Positions 7,712-46,563 are shown, counted from the first letter of the whole stretch. The stretch is DNA of 63,584 nt, filler included, from Candidatus Babelota bacterium (GCA_017999075.1; 11 parts of 11 records of this genome joined end to end with filler, not necessarily neighbours in it); one strand, 5' to 3'. Notes: generated by a model from the sequence alone, not told the origin. Made by a program: numbers and translations.

Positions 7712-10327
7712 ATGATAAGCGCATTATATACATCAGAATCAGGAATGTTAAGTATGCAGACAGGTTTGGATGTTATAGGTTATAACATTGCAAATGTCAA
7801 TACCGAAGCTTTTAAAAAGAATGATGTGACTTTTAAAGATTTATTATATCAATCATATAATGTTGCTCAAACTAATATAAATCCGCTTCAAAAAGGTTTG
7901 GGGGCAATGTTTGCCGATGCAAGGAAAATTATGACTCAAGGTTCTGCAATATCAGGATCATCTGAAACAGATTTGTATATAAGCGGTAATGGTTTTTTTG
8001 TATTGAATAAAGATGGTATGCAGTTATATTCAAGGCTTGGAAGATTTAGATTTGAAGCCGGAGAAAATTCTTCTGAGAATGGTTTTCCTGTAGTATCATC
8101 AGACGGAAATATTAATTATTATCTTGGTAATCCTACTGTAACTACCGCATTAAAATTAGTTAATCCGAATGACGGCGCAGTTTTACAGGGATGGATGGCT
8201 GATACTGAAACTGGAGAAATAACTTCTTCGGGTTCAGTTTCAAATATTGAAATAAGTGAACCGTATTTTTATATGAACCCTAAAGCTACTACTTATGAAA
8301 ATGTAAAAGGAACAATAAATGCTGAAGCGGCATTATCAGTATATAATTCTTCAATGATTAAAAATATGAGTGTCGGAGGTTCTGAAATCGGTCAATCAGA
8401 ATTATCAGATAATATTGAATTGTATGGAGCTTCAACCAATAATATTAAAGGACAATATAATATAGAAATTTATGAAGATGGTTCTGCAGTAGTAACTTTT
8501 GTATCTGAAAATGGACTTACTCCTCCTTCATCAAAAACTTTTGATGAAGGAAGTATTTCAACTGAAGTTGATGAAAATGGCGAAATTGTTTTGACAAATC
8601 TTATTCCAGGGTTGGAAATAACTTTGAAAAATGATATCGATTCACAGGTGAAATTGACCATAGATAATTCGGGAAAATCTATAGGCGATGAATTTTCTGC
8701 TATAAATACTGTTATTGATTCTTCCGGCGGAGAACATTCTGTAATGACAGTTTTTACTAAAATTTCAGAAAATACATGGAAATGGAAAACAGACCTGATT
8801 AATGAAGAAACTTTTACAGGCACGGGTAATGCTCAAAATTTTGTATTGTCAAATGATATAAATCAGCAGTATCCTGTTACTATTACGGCAAATAACGGGC
8901 TTGTTACAAGAACTATAGAACCATCACAATTTTATTTTTTTGAAGATAATAAAATAATTACTAACGGAACATTTGAATCAAATGAAACAATTACAATTTC
9001 ATATACTGATAAACTGGGGAATTCGAGAACTGAACAATTTACAGAACCTGAATACAGGCAGGCGTTTGTTTTAGATAAAAATATTGATCCTGAAACAGTA
9101 AAAATTTTTGTGGGCGGAAATGATTCTCCTCTGTCTTCTGAAAATTATTCGGTTGTAGGAAATAAAATTATTCCTGTAGATCTTGACGGTGACGGGAAAA
9201 GTGATCAGCCGTTTATTTATCCGGGAGCTGATATTAAAATAACATATCAGATTTCTCCTGTTTCAAAAAGTATGGCTGCATTTTATAAAGATGAATTTCC
9301 TGGTTCTGGAAATGCTGAAAATATAACGCTTACCAAAAAACCTGATTCAGATAAAGATATTACAATTAAAGTTGTAAATAATATTACCGGAGAAGAAGAG
9401 GTTTTAAGTTTGTCTGATTTTGATCTTACGGAAAATATTTTGTCGCCGAAAGACACTGATGGCGACGGAACAGCTGACAGTCCAGTTATAAATACTGATG
9501 AAAAACTTGTGGTAGAGTATTCTGAATATGTCAAACCTGTTACATTGACAGAAAATTTTACTATTGAAAACGGAAATAATGCAGCTCCTATCAGATTGCA
9601 GGCAGTTCCTGATTTATCTTCTATCATTGTTAAAGTAAATGGTGTTGAAATATCAGCGGATAATTATGAACTTGGCGGAAATATGATTTATCCTAAAGAT
9701 ACAGATGGAGACGGTATACGCGATTCATTCGGCTCTACAGGAGATATAGTTGAAATAAGTTATGATATTGTAAGTCAAACTGAAGGTATAATTACATTTG
9801 ATGCAATAGGAAATGTAATCGGAGGTTCAAGGACTCCAGAAATAACTTTTAATATTAATACTGCTGCAGAACCGTTAGTGATAGATTTTGATTTTGATAA
9901 AATAGTTCAGCAGGCAGGAGTTAAAGATTCTCTTAACGCTGAATATGACGGAAATAAAGAAGGGTATCTGACTAAAGTTCAGGTTTACAGCGATGGAACA
10001 ATTTCAGGGTATTATTCAAATTCTGAAACAAGAGATATAGCGCAGATAGCTCTTGCTACTTTTACAAATTCTGAATCGCTTGACAGGTTTGGAGACAGTT
10101 ATTTTAATGTAAATGCTAATTCTAATGAAACTGCGGTAATTTCAACTGCCGGAACTGACAGCGCGGCAGGAGTTATAGTTTCAAATTATCTCGAAGGTTC
10201 AAATGTGGATTTATCTACAGAGATGACTAATATGATAATTTATCAGCGCGCATTTCAGTTGGATGCCAAAGGAATCCATACTGCTGATGAAATGCTGCAA
10301 AATGCGATTAATTTGAAACGCAGTTAA
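7712..10327 (+). CDS. flgE: Flagellar hook protein FlgE family, enlarged by internal repeats
   Basis: N-terminal GLDVIGYNIANVNTEAFK, DLYISGNGFF, YSRLGRF; C-terminal LEGSNVDLSTEMTNMIIYQRAFQ..AK.I.TADEMLQ. Confidence 0.88.
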   Translation: MISALYTSESGMLSMQTGLDVIGYNIANVNTEAFKKNDVTFKDLLYQSYNVAQTNINPLQKGLGAMFADARKIMTQGSAISGSSETDLYISGNGFFVLNKDGMQLYSRLGRFRFEAGENSSENGFPVVSSDGNINYYLGNPTVTTALKLVNPNDGAVLQGWMADTETGEITSSGSVSNIEISEPYFYMNPKATTYENVKGTINAEAALSVYNSSMIKNMSVGGSEIGQSELSDNIELYGASTNNIKGQYNIEIYEDGSAVVTFVSENGLTPPSSKTFDEGSISTEVDENGEIVLTNLIPGLEITLKNDIDSQVKLTIDNSGKSIGDEFSAINTVIDSSGGEHSVMTVFTKISENTWKWKTDLINEETFTGTGNAQNFVLSNDINQQYPVTITANNGLVTRTIEPSQFYFFEDNKIITNGTFESNETITISYTDKLGNSRTEQFTEPEYRQAFVLDKNIDPETVKIFVGGNDSPLSSENYSVVGNKIIPVDLDGDGKSDQPFIYPGADIKITYQISPVSKSMAAFYKDEFPGSGNAENITLTKKPDSDKDITIKVVNNITGEEEVLSLSDFDLTENILSPKDTDGDGTADSPVINTDEKLVVEYSEYVKPVTLTENFTIENGNNAAPIRLQAVPDLSSIIVKVNGVEISADNYELGGNMIYPKDTDGDGIRDSFGSTGDIVEISYDIVSQTEGIITFDAIGNVIGGSRTPEITFNINTAAEPLVIDFDFDKIVQQAGVKDSLNAEYDGNKEGYLTKVQVYSDGTISGYYSNSETRDIAQIALATFTNSESLDRFGDSYFNVNANSNETAVISTAGTDSAAGVIVSNYLEGSNVDLSTEMTNMIIYQRAFQLDAKGIHTADEMLQNAINLKRS
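8804..9766 (+). repeat. Four degenerate ~70-80 aa repeats inside FlgE, three with DxDGDG loops
   Basis: Units begin E.F(TG/PG).GN...L; units 2-4 contain DLDGDGKSD (9179), DTDGDGTAD (9452) and DTDGDGIRD (9698); each ends in an I.I.Y-like strand. Confidence 0.75.
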
Positions 10328-40565: not shown

Positions 40566-40706
40566 GCATATTTTCCTTGTAATTTTTTTTACTTGTATTA
40601 AAATTAAGTTTTAATATAAATCATTTTTTTTTTTTTTTTTTAGGATTTAATTAAATTAATTTAATTTTATTTTTAAAACTGAATTTGGGAATATTAGGGA
40701 ATATTA

Positions 40707-40806
40707 NNNNNNNNNNNNNNNNNNNNNNNNNNNNNNNNNNNNNNNNNNNNTTAATTAATTAANNNNNNNNNNNNNNNNNNNNNNNNNNNNNNNNNNNNNN
40801 NNNNNN
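40707..40806. other. Artificial contig spacer
   Basis: N44-TTAATTAATTAA-N44. Confidence 0.99.
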
Positions 40807-40807
40807 G

Positions 40808-40957
40808 ATTGAAATGGGATTTGATTCATTAATGCTTGTGAATCTTATGAATAAATTATCGGAATGTTTCAGTATGGAAATGACAATTGCCGTGTTCTAT
40901 GAGTTTGAAACGGTAAATAAACTCACTGATTACTTTTTTATAAAACTAAATAAATGA
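40808..40957 (+). CDS. C-terminal PKS-type acyl carrier domain, 5'-truncated (not in ORF track)
   Basis: Reads IEMGFDSLMLVNLMNKLSECFSMEMTIAVFYEFETVNKLTDYFFIKLNK*; GxDSL phosphopantetheine motif and FYE..TV..L helix; its stop overlaps the next ATG (ATGA). Confidence 0.8.
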   Translation: MEMGFDSLMLVNLMNKLSECFSMEMTIAVFYEFETVNKLTDYFFIKLNK

Positions 40958-42120
40958 AAGAGGAATTTATGAAAAAAAAAGTTTGTATTTTAACTTCTAT
41001 GCTTTTATGTGAAGGTAATTCTTACCTCAGTTCGCGGTTATATAAATATTTTATAATGAATGATTACGAAATAGTATCTGAAGCTCCCGGAACAGAAGCA
41101 GTTATAGTAAATACCTGTATATTTGACGAAAAACGCGAAAAAGACGCTTTTGATTTAATTAATAATATTGTGAATAATGCAGAAAAAAATCAAAAAATAA
41201 TTATTATAGGCTGCCTTGCAAATATGGAAAAAAGATTGCCTTCAAGCGATAAATATATAAAGATAGGATTAGCTGAGGGAAATAAATTTGATGAGATATT
41301 TAAGCCTGCAATACCGTATAGTGATATTCTAATAGAAACTGTTAACCCGAAATATGCAAATACTGCATACGCATTGCTTGACCATTTTTATCTGAAACTT
41401 GGTTACGGATGCGCTAACAAATGCTCATACTGCATTATCCGCGTGGCAAAAGGAATGGTAAAAAGTGAACCAATCAAAAAAGTTCTTTCTGATTTTGAAA
41501 CTGGATTAAAAATGGGTCATAAAAAATTTATACTGCTTATTGACGATATTGGAAGTTATGGAATAGACATAGGAACTAATTTTGCCGAACTTTTAAATGA
41601 AATGCTTGCATATAAAGAATATAATTTTCAGTTATCAATGTATTATATTTTTCCGGGTCACTTTTTGAGGCTATTTGATAAAATAAATAAAGAAATATTT
41701 TTATATATGAGATTAATAAATATACCGCTTCAATCAACTTCTCAGCGCATATTGAAAATGATGAACAGAAATTACGATGTGAAAAAAGTGTTGGAATTAG
41801 TTGAAAAAATAAAAACATTTAATCCTTCAATAAAATTCAGAACTCATATAATGTATGGTTTTCCTACAGAAACCCGTGAAGAGTTTGAAAAATCATTTGA
41901 AATTTTGCCTGAATATTTTGATGAAAGTTATTTTTTTTGCTATTCAGATAAAGAAGGAACTGAATCAATTAATTATGATGGGAAAATAAGCAATGATGAA
42001 AAAATTTCAAGAACTCAATATGTATGTGACTATTTTAAGAAAAACAAGAAAATACTTTTGGGTTATTATTGGGCTGATACAAGTTATGAAGCATTGGCAA
42101 AAGTAATAGGAATAAAGTAG
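40954..42120 (+). CDS. MiaB/RimO-like (methylthiotransferase family) radical SAM protein lacking a TRAM domain
   Basis: UPF0004 cysteines (LCEGN, NTCIF, IGCLA), CANKCSYC, DIGSYG.D, IPLQS.S.RILK.MNR, GFPTETREEF. Alternative start at 40969. Confidence 0.85.
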   Translation: MKEEFMKKKVCILTSMLLCEGNSYLSSRLYKYFIMNDYEIVSEAPGTEAVIVNTCIFDEKREKDAFDLINNIVNNAEKNQKIIIIGCLANMEKRLPSSDKYIKIGLAEGNKFDEIFKPAIPYSDILIETVNPKYANTAYALLDHFYLKLGYGCANKCSYCIIRVAKGMVKSEPIKKVLSDFETGLKMGHKKFILLIDDIGSYGIDIGTNFAELLNEMLAYKEYNFQLSMYYIFPGHFLRLFDKINKEIFLYMRLINIPLQSTSQRILKMMNRNYDVKKVLELVEKIKTFNPSIKFRTHIMYGFPTETREEFEKSFEILPEYFDESYFFCYSDKEGTESINYDGKISNDEKISRTQYVCDYFKKNKKILLGYYWADTSYEALAKVIGIK

Positions 42121-42240
42121 TCAGAATATAATTTTTCTAAAAACGTTCTGATTAAATCAAAAAATACTGCTTAAAAATATTATATAATTTCAAAATAGTT
42201 TTCCTGAATAAATCAATAATATATTTTGGAAATTAAGAAT

Positions 42241-45200
42241 ATGAAAAAAGAAAGTTATATTAACGAAAAAAAAATTTATCCGTTGACATCAACGCAGATG
42301 GATATTTGGAATGATCAGAAATTATTTCCTGATCTGCCTAATTATATAATAGGAGGATATGGAATAGTAAATGGCAATTTCAATATTGATATATTTTCTA
42401 AAGCATTGAAAATTACAACCGATGAAAATGAAAGCCTGCGTTTGAAATTTACGGAAATAGAGAATATACCTTACCAATATGTCGAGGTAAATTGCGAACC
42501 TGATTTGAAAATTCTTGATTATACAAATTTTACGGAACCGGAAAAGCAAGCCATAGATTTTATAGAAAAAGAATTCTATGTTATTTTTGATTTGGTGAAT
42601 AATCTGCTTTTTAAGACATATATTATAAAACTGTCTGAAAATCGGAATATTATGTTTTACAAGTTTCATCATCTGATTAATGACGGTTTTGGAATAATGA
42701 AATTTTATTCTAAACTATCAGAAAACTATAATAAAATTTTGAAAAATGAAAAAATTGAAATTTCAAAAAATGAATATGTTTCTTTTATAAAAGAAAATCT
42801 TGAATATTTGCAGTCTGAAAAAATTAAAATTGACGCTGAATACTGGAATGAAAAATTTAAAATTCTTCCTGAACCTCTTTTTAAAGAAACAGCAGCTGAC
42901 AATACCCAGGAAAGCATTATAAAAACAATTAGATTGGAAAGGGAAAAATATGAACAATTAAACATTATTGCCCGGAATTCAAAAACAGGATTTTTTCATT
43001 TGTTTATTGGAATGCTTTGGCTTTATTTGTCACGTATATATCAGGAAGAAGATATTGTATTCAGTTTATCCTTATTGAACAGAGAAAAAAAACAGTATAA
43101 AGAAACGACAGGATTATTTACATCGGTTATTCCATTTAGACTTAAAGCAGACAGCAGTGAAAATTTTTTAACTTTAACGGGAAAAATAAGGGATGAAATT
43201 TTTACTGATTATAAATACCGCAATTATCCCTACAGCAGAATAAATAATATAATCAGTTCAAAAACCGGGAGAATGAACGATATATTTCAAGTTACGTTGT
43301 CATATGAAATCAGTAAAATGGATATTTTATTCGGTGACTGCAAAATTATTTATTTTCCTATGGCTAATAAATATGAAATGTTTGGATTGAATATTTATGT
43401 ACGCGAATATCAGAAGGAGGATAAGTTAAATAACGATATTATTATAGATATTGGCGGGAAAAAAAGTTTTTTTTCTGAATATGAATTGGAGAGAATTGCC
43501 GGAGATTTGAATAACTTAATAAATGAAATAATAAGTAATCCGGATAGAAAAATTAATGAATTCGAATTAATAAGCGCAACAGAAAAAGAAAAGATATTAT
43601 ATGAATTCAACGCAACTGATGCTGATTATCCGAAGGAAAAAACAATAGCTGAATTATTTGAAGAGCAGGTTGAGAAAACTCCGGATAATATAGCTGTAGT
43701 GTTTGAAAATAAAAAAATAACATACAGTGAATTAAATGAAAAGGCAAATGTTATTGCTCGTTATCTCGTGGGAACTGAAAAACTTAAAACTGAAGATATT
43801 GTAGCTTTGCATCTTGAGAGAAGCGAGTATATGATTATTGCTATACTCGGAATTTTTAAGGCTGGTTGTGCATATTTGCCTATTGATATAGATATGCCGG
43901 AAGAACGAATAAACTATATTTTAAATGACAGTAATGCAGTGTTAACATTTTCTGATACCGGAGAAAGTGAGTATTTGGACATTAGAAAAATCATTGGAAT
44001 CTGCGGAACAGGAAATTTGAATTTGAAAATATTTAATGATAATTTAGCTTATATTATATACACATCAGGTTCGACAGGCCAGCCTAAAGGCGTTATGATA
44101 GAACAGAAAGGTATGATAAATCATCTTTTTGCAAAAATAAATTCTCTGAAATTAACTTCAGACAGTATAGTCGCTGTTAATGCCGCATATCATTTTGATA
44201 TATCAGTTTGGCAGTTTCTGGCAAATCTGCTTGTCGGAGGACGAATAGTAATATATTCAAAAAATGTAATTTTAAATATTGAAAAATTTATAAATAAAAT
44301 AGTTGAAGATAAAATTTCGATTTTGGAGGTTGTTCCTGCATATCTGACTGAAATGCTTGTTTTTTTTAATGAAAAGCAAATTCAATTGAATTCACTTAAA
44401 TATCTTATTGTTACCGGAGAAAGTTTAAAACAGAATTTGGTAAAATTATGGTTTGAAAAATATCCGGAAATATTAATGGTTAATGCTTACGGGCCCACAG
44501 AAGCATCTGATGATATAACTCATTTTTTTATAGATAAATCTTTTAATATGGATCGTATACCTGTGGGAAAACCTGTTTCTAATTTAAAAATTTATATAGT
44601 TGATAAAAATATGAAATTATGTCCGGTTGGCGTTCAAGGTGAAATTGTAGTTTCAGGCGTTGGGGTAGGCCGAGGGTATATAAACAACAAGGAAAAGACT
44701 GAAGAAGTATTTATAAAAGATTGTATTTTGAGTGAAACAGGTAATCGTATGTATAAAACCGGAGATATAGGCAGGTGGCTTCCTGACGGTAATATTGAAT
44801 TTTTAGGGCGTATAGATGAACAAGAGAAAATACGAGGTTTCAGGATAGAACTTGGAGAAATAGAAACTGCGATTTCAAAACATCCTGCAATAAAAGAAAA
44901 TGTTGTTATAGCGAAAAAATTGAAAGGAGAAAACGAAAACAAGGAACTTATAGCGTATTACACTTTGAAAATTAACGGATTGGCTGATAATGAAAACTCC
45001 GATGATTCGGAAAATTTGCGAATTAGCAAATCAGAAAATTTTAAATTAGGAATTAGCGAGATTCGAGAATTTTTAGAAAAATTTCTTCCTGAGTATATGA
45101 TTCCGTCATATTTTGTAGAATTGGAAAGAATGCCGTTAAATCAGAATGGAAAGATAGATAAAAAAAAATTGCCGTTACTGTCAGAGGAAGATCTGGTTGC

Positions 45201-46463
45201 CGGCCGGAAATACAAAGAGCCGGAAACTCAAATTGAAAAAAAACTTGCTGAGATATGGAATGAAGTTTTAATGCTTACAAAAGTAAGCGTTTTAGATAAT
45301 TTTTTTGAACTGGGCGGACAAAGTATAAAAGCAATTCAGGTTGTATCGCGTATACAAAAAAGTATAAATGCTGGAATCGGGATTAAAGAAATATTTCAAT
45401 ATCCGACAATTAAAGAACTGGCAAATTGTATATCAAACAGTAAAAAAATTGAATTGTTTGATATAAAAAAAGTAGAAGAAAACGAATATTATGAATTGTC
45501 AAACGCTCAGCGCAGATTATGGGTATTGTCGCAGTTTGAAGAACAAAAGAACGCATATAATATGCCGGCAGTTCTTGAAATTGAAGGGAATTTAAATATT
45601 GAATGCTTCAGAAATTCTATTTTTGAAGTAATAGACAGGCACGAAATATTGCGTACAATATTTGTTATGATTAATGGAGAACCGAAACAAAAAATAATTG
45701 AAACCGACAAATTGAAAATTGAAAATTATTTTGAATATGAGGATATTTCAAAAACAGATAATTCGGAATCTATAATTCTCAATTGTCAATCTTCAATTCT
45801 TAATTATCAATTTGATTTAACAAAAGTCCCGATGATGAAAATAAAAATAATAAAAATTTGTGATTATAAATTTTTATTGTTTTTCAACATGCATCACATA
45901 ATATCAGACGGATGGTCAATGAATATTTTGATAAAAGATATTATGGAGATTTATAATTCTAAAATTGAAAAAAGAGAATCTGGTTTAACAAAATTAAATA
46001 TTCAGTATAAGGATTATGCTTATTGGCAGAATAAATTGTTGAAATCGGAAAAAATAAATTATGCTCGCGAGTACTGGTTGAAAAAATTATCAGGAGAAAT
46101 ACCTGCATTGGAATTGCCGTCGGATAAACCTCGGCCTGTTGTTCAAACATTCAATGGCGATATGATTGACGGATTTATAGAAAAAGAAATTACCGGAAAA
46201 ATAAACGAATTATGCAAGAAACAGAATGTAAGTTTATTTATGTTTTTAACAGCAGCGGTAAAAGTATTGCTGCATTTTTATACAGGCGCTGAAGACATAA
46301 TAATAGGTTCGCCGATTGCGGGGAGAATACATTCGGATTTAGAAAATCAAATCGGATTTTATGTTAATTCATTAGCGCTGCGAGATAATATAAAAAGCGA
46401 AATGACATTTGCAGAATTTTTGGATGCTGTCCGCAATACAGCTCTTGAAGCGTACCAAAATGA
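42241..46463 (+). CDS. Non-ribosomal peptide synthetase, C-A-PCP-C, 3'-truncated
   Basis: HHLINDG C domain; A domain YTSGSTGQPKG, YGPTE, YKTGD, KIRGFRIELGEIE, NGKIDK; PCP LGGQS; second C domain HHIISDGWS. Confidence 0.95.
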
Positions 46464-46563
46464 NNNNNNNNNNNNNNNNNNNNNNNNNNNNNNNNNNNNN
46501 NNNNNNNTTAATTAATTAANNNNNNNNNNNNNNNNNNNNNNNNNNNNNNNNNNNNNNNNNNNN
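46464..46563. other. Artificial contig spacer
   Basis: N44-TTAATTAATTAA-N44. Confidence 0.99.

Follow-up and report, generated by a model that had tools for sequence, protein, structure and literature searches.

Lipoyl synthase (LipA) and biotin synthase (BioB) are radical SAM enzymes that take sulfur from a sacrificial auxiliary Fe-S cluster, and the substrate of LipA is a carrier-bound octanoyl group. For methylthiotransferases (MTTases), the parts of PMC10702137 available to us give tRNA A37 and ribosomal protein S12 as the known substrates, and mention methylthio-F430 as the one well-known small-molecule case whose enzyme is still to be identified. In carbapenem biosynthesis, the available parts of PMC9407657 describe ThnL as a B12-dependent radical SAM thioether synthase. 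Our literature searches found no description of a TRAM-less MiaB/RimO-type enzyme in assembly-line tailoring. Here, we describe a radical SAM gene of this type whose position hints at such an undescribed tailoring step.

The window, by which we mean the whole 63,584-nucleotide stretch of DNA that was analysed, is a pseudomolecule in which 100-bp linkers connect the contigs; it contains 10 such artificial linkers, all identical, with spacings that decrease from 5,863 to 5,692 bp. The locus occupies one complete contig of 5,657 bp (40807-46463) from an uncultivated bacterium in a wastewater metagenome. Since this contig has linkers on either side, sequence to the left of 40707 or to the right of 46563 is not its genomic neighbour. 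A carrier-domain ORF, the radical SAM gene and a nonribosomal peptide synthetase (NRPS) gene all lie on the + strand of this 5.7-kb contig, with the following features:

40707..40806, no strand: artificial contig linker (44 N + TTAATTAATTAA + 44 N, 100 bp), left contig boundary
40808..40957, + strand: phosphopantetheine carrier domain, C-terminal 49 aa, with GFDSL serine motif and TGA end (PF00550)
40969..42120, + strand: TRAM-less MiaB/RimO-family radical SAM gene, 383 aa (PF00919, PF04055, TIGR00089, structure model)
42121..42240, + strand: A+T-rich spacer of 120 nt from the radical SAM stop to the NRPS ATG (read in the sequence)
42241..46463, + strand: NRPS gene, 3' end cut by the contig end (Pfam; public call of 1,407 aa, P0391)
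42283..43620, + strand: first condensation domain, approximate limits, HHLINDG (HHxxxDG motif; PF00668, two stretches)
43657..45153, + strand: adenylation domain, AMP-binding plus AMP-binding_C (PF00501 E 4.3e-72; PF13193 E 1.8e-06)
45241..45432, + strand: peptidyl carrier protein domain (PF00550 E 2e-11, residues 1006-1069 of P0003)
45484..46461, + strand: second condensation domain, truncated by the contig end, HHIISDG (PF00668 profile positions 3-326 of 456)
46464..46563, no strand: artificial contig linker (44 N + TTAATTAATTAA + 44 N), right contig boundary

We show that the radical SAM protein has an MTTase-type fold and both [4Fe-4S]-binding cysteine triads, and that it lacks a TRAM domain. 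Its N-terminus matches PF00919 UPF0004 (E 6.5e-12) and its core PF04055 (E 3.2e-17). As the original prediction held, the three N-terminal UPF0004 cysteines and the CxxxCxxC motif are present: the auxiliary-cluster residues C14, C50 and C82 (383-aa numbering) are each found in 72 of 73 aligned relatives, and C148xxxC152xxC155 is invariant in all 73 rows. The cysteine of a DDC motif common in the clade (51/73 rows) is an isoleucine in the window protein. The predicted absence of TRAM is likewise borne out, as a profile search of the protein found no match to PF01938 or PF18693, the TIGR00089 match covers only profile positions 9-362 of 429, and past residue 341 (342-383) the AF2 model (pLDDT 93.9, pTM 0.91) contains no more than two helices and a strand of 3 residues. 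The top Foldseek matches of this model are the MtaB model 9a6d (E 2.3e-24), RimO 4jc0 (7.3e-22) and MiaB 7mjw (7.8e-22); 9a6d and the structures 7mjv-7mjz represent tRNA A37 methylthiotransferases.

A similar trace might be left by a canonical methylthiotransferase that continues to modify tRNA or S12 although its TRAM domain has been lost or its ORF is truncated or mis-called. RimO, the ribosomal protein uS12 Asp methylthiotransferase, is indeed the best NCBIfam equivalog and also heads the PDB sequence matches with its T. maritima structure 4jc0 (E 1.2e-34 over query residues 31-343), and MiaB-scoring ORFs that end before the TRAM region occur in two genomes (375 aa at L081, 415 aa at L082). 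However, the window protein falls under every curated cut-off, with 178.3 bits against 356.95 for RimO, 173.8 against 357.05 for MtaB, 142.7 against 355.3 for MiaB, and 220.8 against 251 for TIGR00089. Moreover, the ORF closes at a stop codon, and the confidently modelled helical C-terminus leaves no space for a TRAM barrel. Phylogeny speaks against this explanation as well: in an IQ-TREE analysis (LG+C20+F+G4 PMSF) of 57 rows, comprising 50 TRAM-less proteins and 7 NCBIfam-labelled MiaB, MtaB and RimO proteins, all 50 TRAM-less rows split from the three canonical families with 100/100 support and a stem length of 2.52, and a FastTree analysis of 148 rows agrees with this separation. Finally, canonical MTTases above the TIGR00089 cut-off co-occur with a TRAM-less paralog in 5/5 other genomes examined; NCBIfam names MiaB, RimO and MtaB in two of these (G003 and G005), and MiaB and RimO in a third (G001), which also encodes an MtaB-like protein 1 bit below the cut-off. 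Taken together, we regard a canonical function as very improbable.

The window protein, placed outside the canonical MiaB, RimO and MtaB clades, belongs to a TRAM-less sister clade that is large and uncharacterised. This clade comprises hundreds of 50%-identity clusters from anaerobic bacteria and archaea, with cultivated hosts that include Geomonas azotofigens and Desulfosarcina cetonica. The original prediction had proposed that TRAM was lost here as the enzyme was repurposed; this does not hold, since the absence is common to the entire clade (50/50 rows, on a 100/100 branch) and is therefore not a local loss. The separate clade and the co-occurrence of canonical MTTases in 5/5 genomes argue that the window protein is not a housekeeping enzyme.

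Upstream of the radical SAM gene, the carrier fragment aligns to positions 26-66 of the 67-position PF00550 profile (E 4.5e-10), the 5' part of its ORF being lost at the left contig end. This fragment had been read as a terminal polyketide synthase (PKS) acyl carrier protein (ACP) missed by the ORF calls. A carrier domain with a GFDSL motif is present, but it is cut by the contig end rather than missed, and although the PF00550 match stands, phmmer matches in the PDB are all non-significant (E 0.04-1.9) and mixed, with NRPS peptidyl carrier proteins (PCPs) best (E 0.04) and PKS ACPs at E 0.2-1.9. Neither a terminal position nor a PKS origin of the fragment is supported. The overlap previously taken as the start of the radical SAM gene also exists, in that ATG 40954 (388 aa, ORF 40954-42120) forms an ATGA with the carrier stop TGA at 40955-40957; the in-frame ATG 40969 is nevertheless the likelier start, with a GAGG Shine-Dalgarno sequence (40960-40963) 5 nt upstream and agreement from the public gene calls (383 aa, P0004), and it leaves a gap of 11 nt.

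Downstream, ATG 42241, 120 nt past the radical SAM stop, is a more probable start of the NRPS than the alternative TTG 42226. The C-A-PCP-C order predicted for it, on the same strand as the radical SAM gene, was recovered from PF00668 (overall E 2.5e-156, two stretches, the best of which covers residues 1087-1412 in the second condensation domain), PF00501, PF13193 and PF00550. The adenylation domain also matches NRPS A domains in the PDB and carries an NGK motif in its C-terminal part; we take HHLINDG, HHIISDG and NGK to be NRPS catalytic motifs. In the spacer at 42121-42240, no terminator-like site was found on the + strand, and the 12 promoter-like matches are close to the 11.7 that shuffled sequence would give. 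The single strand, the 11-nt and 120-nt gaps, the lack of a + strand terminator-like site in the spacer and a contig from run X1 that bridges 40837-42395 all argue for an operon.

The contig is short and derives from a wastewater metagenome, and many matching run contigs continue into unlike sequence (shares 0.52-0.91), both of which would fit a gene order created by an assembly chimera of the metagenome bin. Against this, two X1 records match with 0 differences each, record 1 (Logan, 1,559 nt) over 40837-42395 and record 2 over 42378-44568, although X1 is the likely source run, perhaps the source sample, and so provides an independent assembly rather than an independent sample. An X1 contig also extends 1,211 nt past 46463. 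Near-identical pieces are present in runs from two other studies than that of X1; record 18 of X3 corresponds to 42074-42224 and records 10 and 11 of X2 to 41698-42199 and 42221-42497. We consider a chimera extremely improbable.

Gene neighbourhoods of homologs offer a broader test. The original prediction was to be refuted if homologs lay mostly outside biosynthetic clusters, and the result goes against it: an NRPS adjoins a homolog in only 3 of 158 loci (2 distinct sequences from one Margulisbacteria-like lineage), leaving 155 without one. This count refutes with limited force, since identity to those homologs does not exceed 41% and none of them is an ortholog. Other loci contain radical SAM genes, some of them B12-dependent, or molybdenum-cofactor (Moco) genes, and contexts extend to molybdopterin oxidoreductase, DUF169, Usp, heat-shock and glycosyltransferase genes. 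Among 106 neighbour proteins of the nearest clade, we found 18 radical SAM, 6 Oxidored_FMN, 4 MobB, 3 GT2 and 3 B12-binding proteins; since other families dominate, family membership predicts no particular pathway. Both the scarcity of NRPS neighbours and this diversity are compatible with a paralog that serves another cellular pathway and merely sits between megasynthase genes. However, both neighbours of the window gene are assembly-line ORFs on the same strand, 11 and 120 nt away, no terminator-like site was found, and genes between megasynthase ORFs are usually pathway-specific. A role outside assembly-line chemistry is distinctly unlikely, and from gene position a tailoring role in the assembly line is likely.

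The NRPS-associated homologs, L015 (a Margulisbacteria MAG, identical to L127) and L146 (a related metagenome contig), add a second case of NRPS association in favour of an assembly-line role. They resemble the window protein in combining UPF0004 and Radical_SAM without a TRAM match (36% identity) and in adjoining C-A-PCP NRPS genes. In the best maximum-likelihood tree they are its sisters, with a support of only 11/21, which does not establish a common subclade dedicated to NRPS loci. They differ in being 517 aa long, with a C-terminal extension, rather than 383 aa, and their NRPS genes are divergently transcribed and 28-30% identical to the window NRPS. In addition, their loci encode a BioB-like protein, a YgiQ-like radical SAM protein and an A domain into which a radical SAM/B12 segment is inserted, none of which is on the window contig.

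What chemistry might the enzyme perform? Given the conserved cysteines and fold, sulfur insertion or methylthiolation is plausible. In such a mechanism, the radical SAM cluster would cleave SAM to a 5'-deoxyadenosyl radical, and this radical would take a hydrogen off an unactivated carbon in a substrate other than RNA. The substrate would be an acyl or peptidyl intermediate tethered to a carrier, an amino-acid building block, or the product after its release. A C-S bond would then form with sulfur from the N-terminal auxiliary cluster, delivered either bare or, as RimO and MiaB do, as -SCH3. Alternatively, the enzyme could tailor its substrate without sulfur, its auxiliary cluster anchoring the substrate or relaying electrons as in MoaA/TYW1, in reactions such as C-C bond formation, C-methylation with a partner, dehydrogenation or epimerisation. 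The clade is distant from enzymes of known activity, as its stem length indicates. Its members occur in multi-gene radical SAM arrays and in fusions that hold 2-4 radical SAM stretches, some with SPASM, and a B12-binding radical SAM gene lies within 3 kb in 28/157 loci, directly adjoining the homolog in L141, L015 and L146. These arrays and B12 neighbours fit multi-step radical pathways in which sulfur transfer is not required. On the other hand, the three cysteines are nearly invariant in the clade, and every characterised UPF0004 three-Cys protein is a methylthiotransferase in the available parts of PMC10702137. We consider non-sulfur chemistry the less likely of the two, though a serious alternative. 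Most likely, the gene is co-transcribed with a nonribosomal, possibly hybrid, assembly line and serves it; the full reading we favour, that its TRAM-less MTTase-like product does so by inserting sulfur, is one we hold tentatively, as a possibility a little short of probable.

The chemistry expected of the methylthiotransferase family would broaden with a sister clade that lacks TRAM but keeps both clusters. It is tempting, if doubtful, to see here the first MiaB/RimO-type enzyme on a natural-product assembly line, placing -SCH3 or sulfur at an unactivated carbon of a precursor or of a substrate tethered to a carrier, and in the clade a reservoir of MTTases for small-molecule, lipid, cofactor or protein substrates beyond tRNA and S12. 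Natural-product mining would gain a tailoring enzyme that installs sulfur and escapes current rules. For now, its value is limited by a 5.7-kb fragment and a predicted function; the clade nevertheless supplies concrete candidates for assay, including those of the two cultivated hosts named above.

Among described enzymes, RimO shares with the window protein an N-terminal domain with three cysteines for the auxiliary cluster and, after it, a radical SAM core, and because it targets a peptide side-chain C-H it is the closest example of action on aminoacyl or peptidyl substrates. The window protein differs from it in the missing TRAM domain, the low equivalog score, the separate clade and neighbours that are NRPS rather than housekeeping genes. 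MiaB and MtaB have the same two-domain fold (Foldseek E 2.3e-24 to 1e-20, query TM 0.65-0.74) and the same six cysteines, whereas the window protein is without their RNA-binding TRAM domain and scores only 143-174 bits against their cut-offs of 355-357. LipA and biotin synthase are precedents for radical SAM chemistry in which an auxiliary cluster is sacrificed to modify a protein-tethered acyl chain; the window model matches LIAS/LipA weakly in fold (E about 1e-7), but their auxiliary-cluster domain and family differ, and TIGR00510 (lipA) scores the window protein at 17.7 bits. ThnL provides a likeness in radical SAM C-S bond formation within secondary metabolism, but as described in the available parts of PMC9407657 it belongs to class B (cobalamin) and links a thiol that is already present, unlike a UPF0004-type enzyme with cluster-supplied sulfur.

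The region discussed here is one complete contig (40807-46463, 5,657 bp), equal in length to the longest contig recorded for its radical SAM protein. The window contains 10 copies of the linker pattern TTAATTAATTAA, where 0.43 would be expected, and their spacing drops steadily from 5,863 to 5,692 bp. These linkers, with stops in all six frames, and their falling spacing therefore identify the window as a pseudomolecule of length-sorted contigs of ~5.6-5.8 kb each. Genes beyond the linkers at 40707 and 46563 are not genomic neighbours of those on this contig, and adjacency read across any linker is unsafe.

40707-40806 and 46464-46563: linkers of 100 bp, each 44 N, TTAATTAATTAA and 44 N
5814, 11677, 17532, 23373, 29197, 34987, 40751, 46508, 52246 and 57938: linker positions

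A run of ~18 T (40624-40641), within A+T-rich sequence close to where the preceding contig ends, probably contributed to the assembly break. G+C is ~24-35%, and other contigs of the window encode a TonB-dependent receptor and TamB, as well as a UvrA (on a neighbouring contig) whose nearest relatives are 86%, 75% and 74% identical. The share of sequence words of contig 40807-46463 is 0.98 in a wastewater metagenome run, possibly the source sample, 0.45 in an activated-sludge run and 0.21 in an anaerobic-digester run, from three studies. The host seems to be an uncultivated diderm bacterium with low G+C that lives in engineered wastewater or anaerobic systems. Elsewhere in the window (7712-10327, + strand), an 871-aa protein, unusually long for a hook-type protein, has a flagellar basal-body rod/hook C-terminal motif as its sole Pfam match.

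On the contig itself, a radical SAM gene sits between a carrier domain and a nonribosomal peptide synthetase (NRPS):

40808-40957: carrier domain, last 49 residues, with the GFDSL serine motif, ending in TGA (PF00550, E 4.5e-10)
ATG 40969 (or 40954) to 42120, + strand: radical SAM ORF, 383 aa in the public gene call
Between the radical SAM end at 42120 and the NRPS ATG at 42241: spacer of 120 nt
ATG 42241 onward: NRPS, C-A-PCP-C up to the contig end (Pfam; 1,407 aa in the public gene call), with the PCP at 45241-45432

The upstream part of the carrier protein is lost at the contig end, and the matches of the 49-aa fragment to the PDB are non-significant, a mixture of PKS ACPs and NRPS PCPs. 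The original prediction placed an ATGA overlap between the carrier stop codon and the radical SAM start. Such an overlap with the TGA does exist at ATG 40954, but ATG 40969 is the likelier start, because GAGG lies 5 nt before it and the public gene call uses it. No terminator-like site was found on the + strand of the contig, and promoter-like matches number 12, about what chance would give (11.7 expected). The radical SAM gene, with a methylthiotransferase fold, two cluster motifs and no TRAM domain, is apparently within one transcription unit between assembly-line genes.

Logan contigs, an independent assembly of run X1, bridge 40837-42395 and 42378-44568 with 0 differences, and we regard an assembly chimera as very improbable. 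Short near-identical pieces from two further studies span the radical SAM 3' end, the spacer and the NRPS start, and one Logan record of run X1 extends 1,211 nt beyond 46463. The order of carrier domain, radical SAM gene and NRPS looks real.

The radical SAM protein has UPF0004 and Radical_SAM matches in Pfam and no Pfam match to TRAM. It scores 220.8 bits against the NCBIfam MiaB/RimO subfamily model (cut-off 251), covering profile positions 9-362 of 429, and 178, 174 and 143 bits against the RimO, MtaB and MiaB equivalogs, respectively, whose cut-offs are near 356. The closest solved structure by sequence is that of T. maritima RimO (E 1.2e-34), and the top structural matches by Foldseek are an MtaB model, RimO and MiaB (E 2e-24 to 1e-20). 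In an AlphaFold2 model built from a 73-row alignment (pLDDT 93.9, pTM 0.91), two helices and a short strand are all that is predicted past residue 341, without a TRAM barrel. The three N-terminal cysteines (C14, C50 and C82) and those of the CxxxCxxC motif are kept in 72-73 of the 73 relatives. Canonical methylthiotransferases hold their tRNA or S12 substrate by the TRAM domain; sequence and predicted fold point to a two-cluster, methylthiotransferase-type catalyst that lacks this holding domain. A further clade motif, DDCGSYG, has its Cys in 51 of the 73 aligned relatives. At this position (residue 194 of 383, 41548-41550) Ile stands in the window protein (DDIGSYG), so the extra Cys is not essential to all clade members.

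Relatives of this protein are numerous but distant. None above 42% identity was found among 5.8 billion proteins, nor any above 41% in genome and metagenome scans. HMMER, run exhaustively over 1.84 billion cluster representatives, returned 716 proteins at E <= 1e-30. The best 150 of these are mostly 350-430 aa; among 11 longer matches noted, the 10 examined have two to four radical SAM stretches each, some with Fer4_12 or SPASM, and one MurB_C as the sole other informative domain. In the ESM Atlas, 22 of the 30 nearest clusters combine Radical_SAM and UPF0004 without TRAM and carry no functional name.

For phylogeny, NCBIfam-labelled MiaB, RimO and MtaB from the same genomes served as reference rows. 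FastTree was run on 148 rows, leaving out locus proteins that were below 300 aa, 3'-open or matched to the query only past its residue 40, as well as 14 rows identical to others, and IQ-TREE on a chosen subset of 57 rows under a site-heterogeneous model. In both, a long branch (100/100, length 2.52) parts all TRAM-less proteins from the three canonical clades, and TRAM absence is thus a clade trait rather than a local event. The proposal that TRAM was lost in a local repurposing for this assembly line does not hold. Canonical methylthiotransferases over cut-off also occur in all five genomes examined that carry a TRAM-less paralog (210-222 bits): G003 and G005 encode MiaB, RimO and MtaB each, and G001 encodes MiaB, RimO and an MtaB-like protein that falls 1 bit short of its cut-off. 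Cultivated hosts of such paralogs are Geomonas azotofigens and Desulfosarcina cetonica (L012, L002). That the window protein is a degenerate housekeeping methylthiotransferase seems to us highly improbable. Two MiaB-scoring ORFs, of 375 aa in G001, a Margulisbacteria genome (locus L081), and of 415 aa in G002, the genome of locus L017 titled Velamenicoccus archaeovorus (locus L082), have matches ending at about profile position 360-368 of 429; in these too, the TRAM region seems to be missing or split off.

To place the clade in its genomic context, we collected 78 loci from species-representative genomes (best 80 of 401 relatives) and 80 from metagenomes (best 80 of 439), with a median length of 12.3 kb and at least 8 kb in 103 of the 158. 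With the window NRPS as tblastn query, C-A-PCP genes were found in three loci (L015, its duplicate L127, and L146) and AMP-binding-only matches in five more. Homologs hence lie mostly outside NRPS clusters: an NRPS adjoins in only 3/158 loci by this search. Such scarcity would fit an unrelated paralog in the wrong place; the carrier and NRPS genes flanking the window gene stand on the other side, and we consider this reading unlikely.

The nearest clade gave 140 proteins within two genes of the homolog across 50 loci, and 106 remained once near-duplicates were removed. Their commonest Pfam families are Radical_SAM (18), Oxidored_FMN (6), MobB (4), Fer4_12 (4), GT2 (3) and B12-binding (3), with two occurrences each of MoaC, FmdE and the MoaA C-terminal domain; none of the 25 most frequent of the 94 families is a PKS family. 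A B12-binding radical SAM protein lies within 3 kb of the homolog in 28 of 157 loci. TRAM-less homologs might conceivably be linked to the maturation of a molybdenum or tungsten cofactor or enzyme. In one subclade (L001, L002, L005 and further loci of Desulfobacterota/Geobacter type, e.g. L005:1387-13672), the homolog is accompanied by a molybdopterin oxidoreductase, a DUF169 ferredoxin-fusion, DUF2064, Usp, a B12-binding radical SAM, an HMPTM-type radical SAM and a peroxiredoxin.

The homologs in L015 (a Margulisbacteria MAG) and L146 (a related metagenome contig) share 71% identity and are transcribed divergently from the NRPS. Their surroundings are as follows:

L015:4980-9914 (-) and L146:5135-9919 (-): NRPS loading protein, A domain apparently interrupted
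L015:11626-14386: BioB/ThiH-like radical SAM with BATS domain and YgiQ-type radical SAM (Radical_SAM_N, DUF3362), directly downstream of the TRAM-less homolog
L146:11607-14428: ORFs of matching size and order

A ~575-aa insert comes after ~110 N-terminal A-domain residues of the loading protein, and beyond it lie the remaining A-domain part and a PCP; the insert matches Radical_SAM at 172-335 and B12-binding at 514-625. The locus thus has four radical SAM modules around one NRPS. A full-text search for A domains interrupted in this way turned up no paper on the subject, judged by titles and abstract openings. In the best maximum-likelihood tree, L015/L146 form the sister group of the window protein with support of 11/21, and FastTree (86) and a quick tree (82) group it with these and with the homologs of L141 and L145 on long branches. 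A well-supported NRPS-associated subclade was rejected, given the 11/21 in the careful tree and the long branches joined in the other two; a dedicated NRPS subclade is possible.

The window NRPS itself is isolated: the closest relative found for its first C domain is 31% identical, so no orthologous cluster is usable for context. Read by eye against the core motifs, the A domain (43657-45153) has Glu at the 278-equivalent and Asp-Asp at the 330/331-equivalents, and the usual Asp235 and Lys517 equivalents. Acidic at three specificity positions, the pocket weakly suggests a cationic (basic or diamino) amino acid, not Asp; on this weak by-eye reading, the substrate of the enzyme would probably not be simply this module's amino acid. 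The AMP-binding_C part of the A domain carries a low-complexity insert rich in Asn, Glu and Ser.

We infer that the window enzyme tailors the assembly-line product or a precursor. Searches of open-access and bioRxiv full text yielded no account of the TRAM-less clade, nor of any MiaB/RimO-like enzyme that belongs to an NRPS or PKS pathway. One paper notes that antiSMASH mislabels the rimO region as a biosynthetic gene cluster (PMC9177418), and RadicalSAM.org lists a methylthiotransferase subgroup with three N-terminal cysteines and, in the passages seen, no finer subdivision (PMC9477430). In the chemistry we envisage, radical C-H abstraction would come first, and the auxiliary cluster would then give up sulfur or methyl-sulfur to the substrate; this would be the most economical scheme, because every characterised UPF0004 enzyme is a methylthiotransferase (PMC10702137, PMC2952846). 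Tailoring by C-S bond formation is the reading that we tentatively favour, short of confidence, and tailoring by other radical chemistry comes second and is less likely. Within its 5.7 kb of context, the finding is real and worth an assay, with the C-S chemistry putative. RimO, the closest characterised relative of the window protein, acts on the aspartyl side chain of a protein, and by analogy an aminoacyl or peptidyl substrate would be chemically reasonable for the window enzyme.
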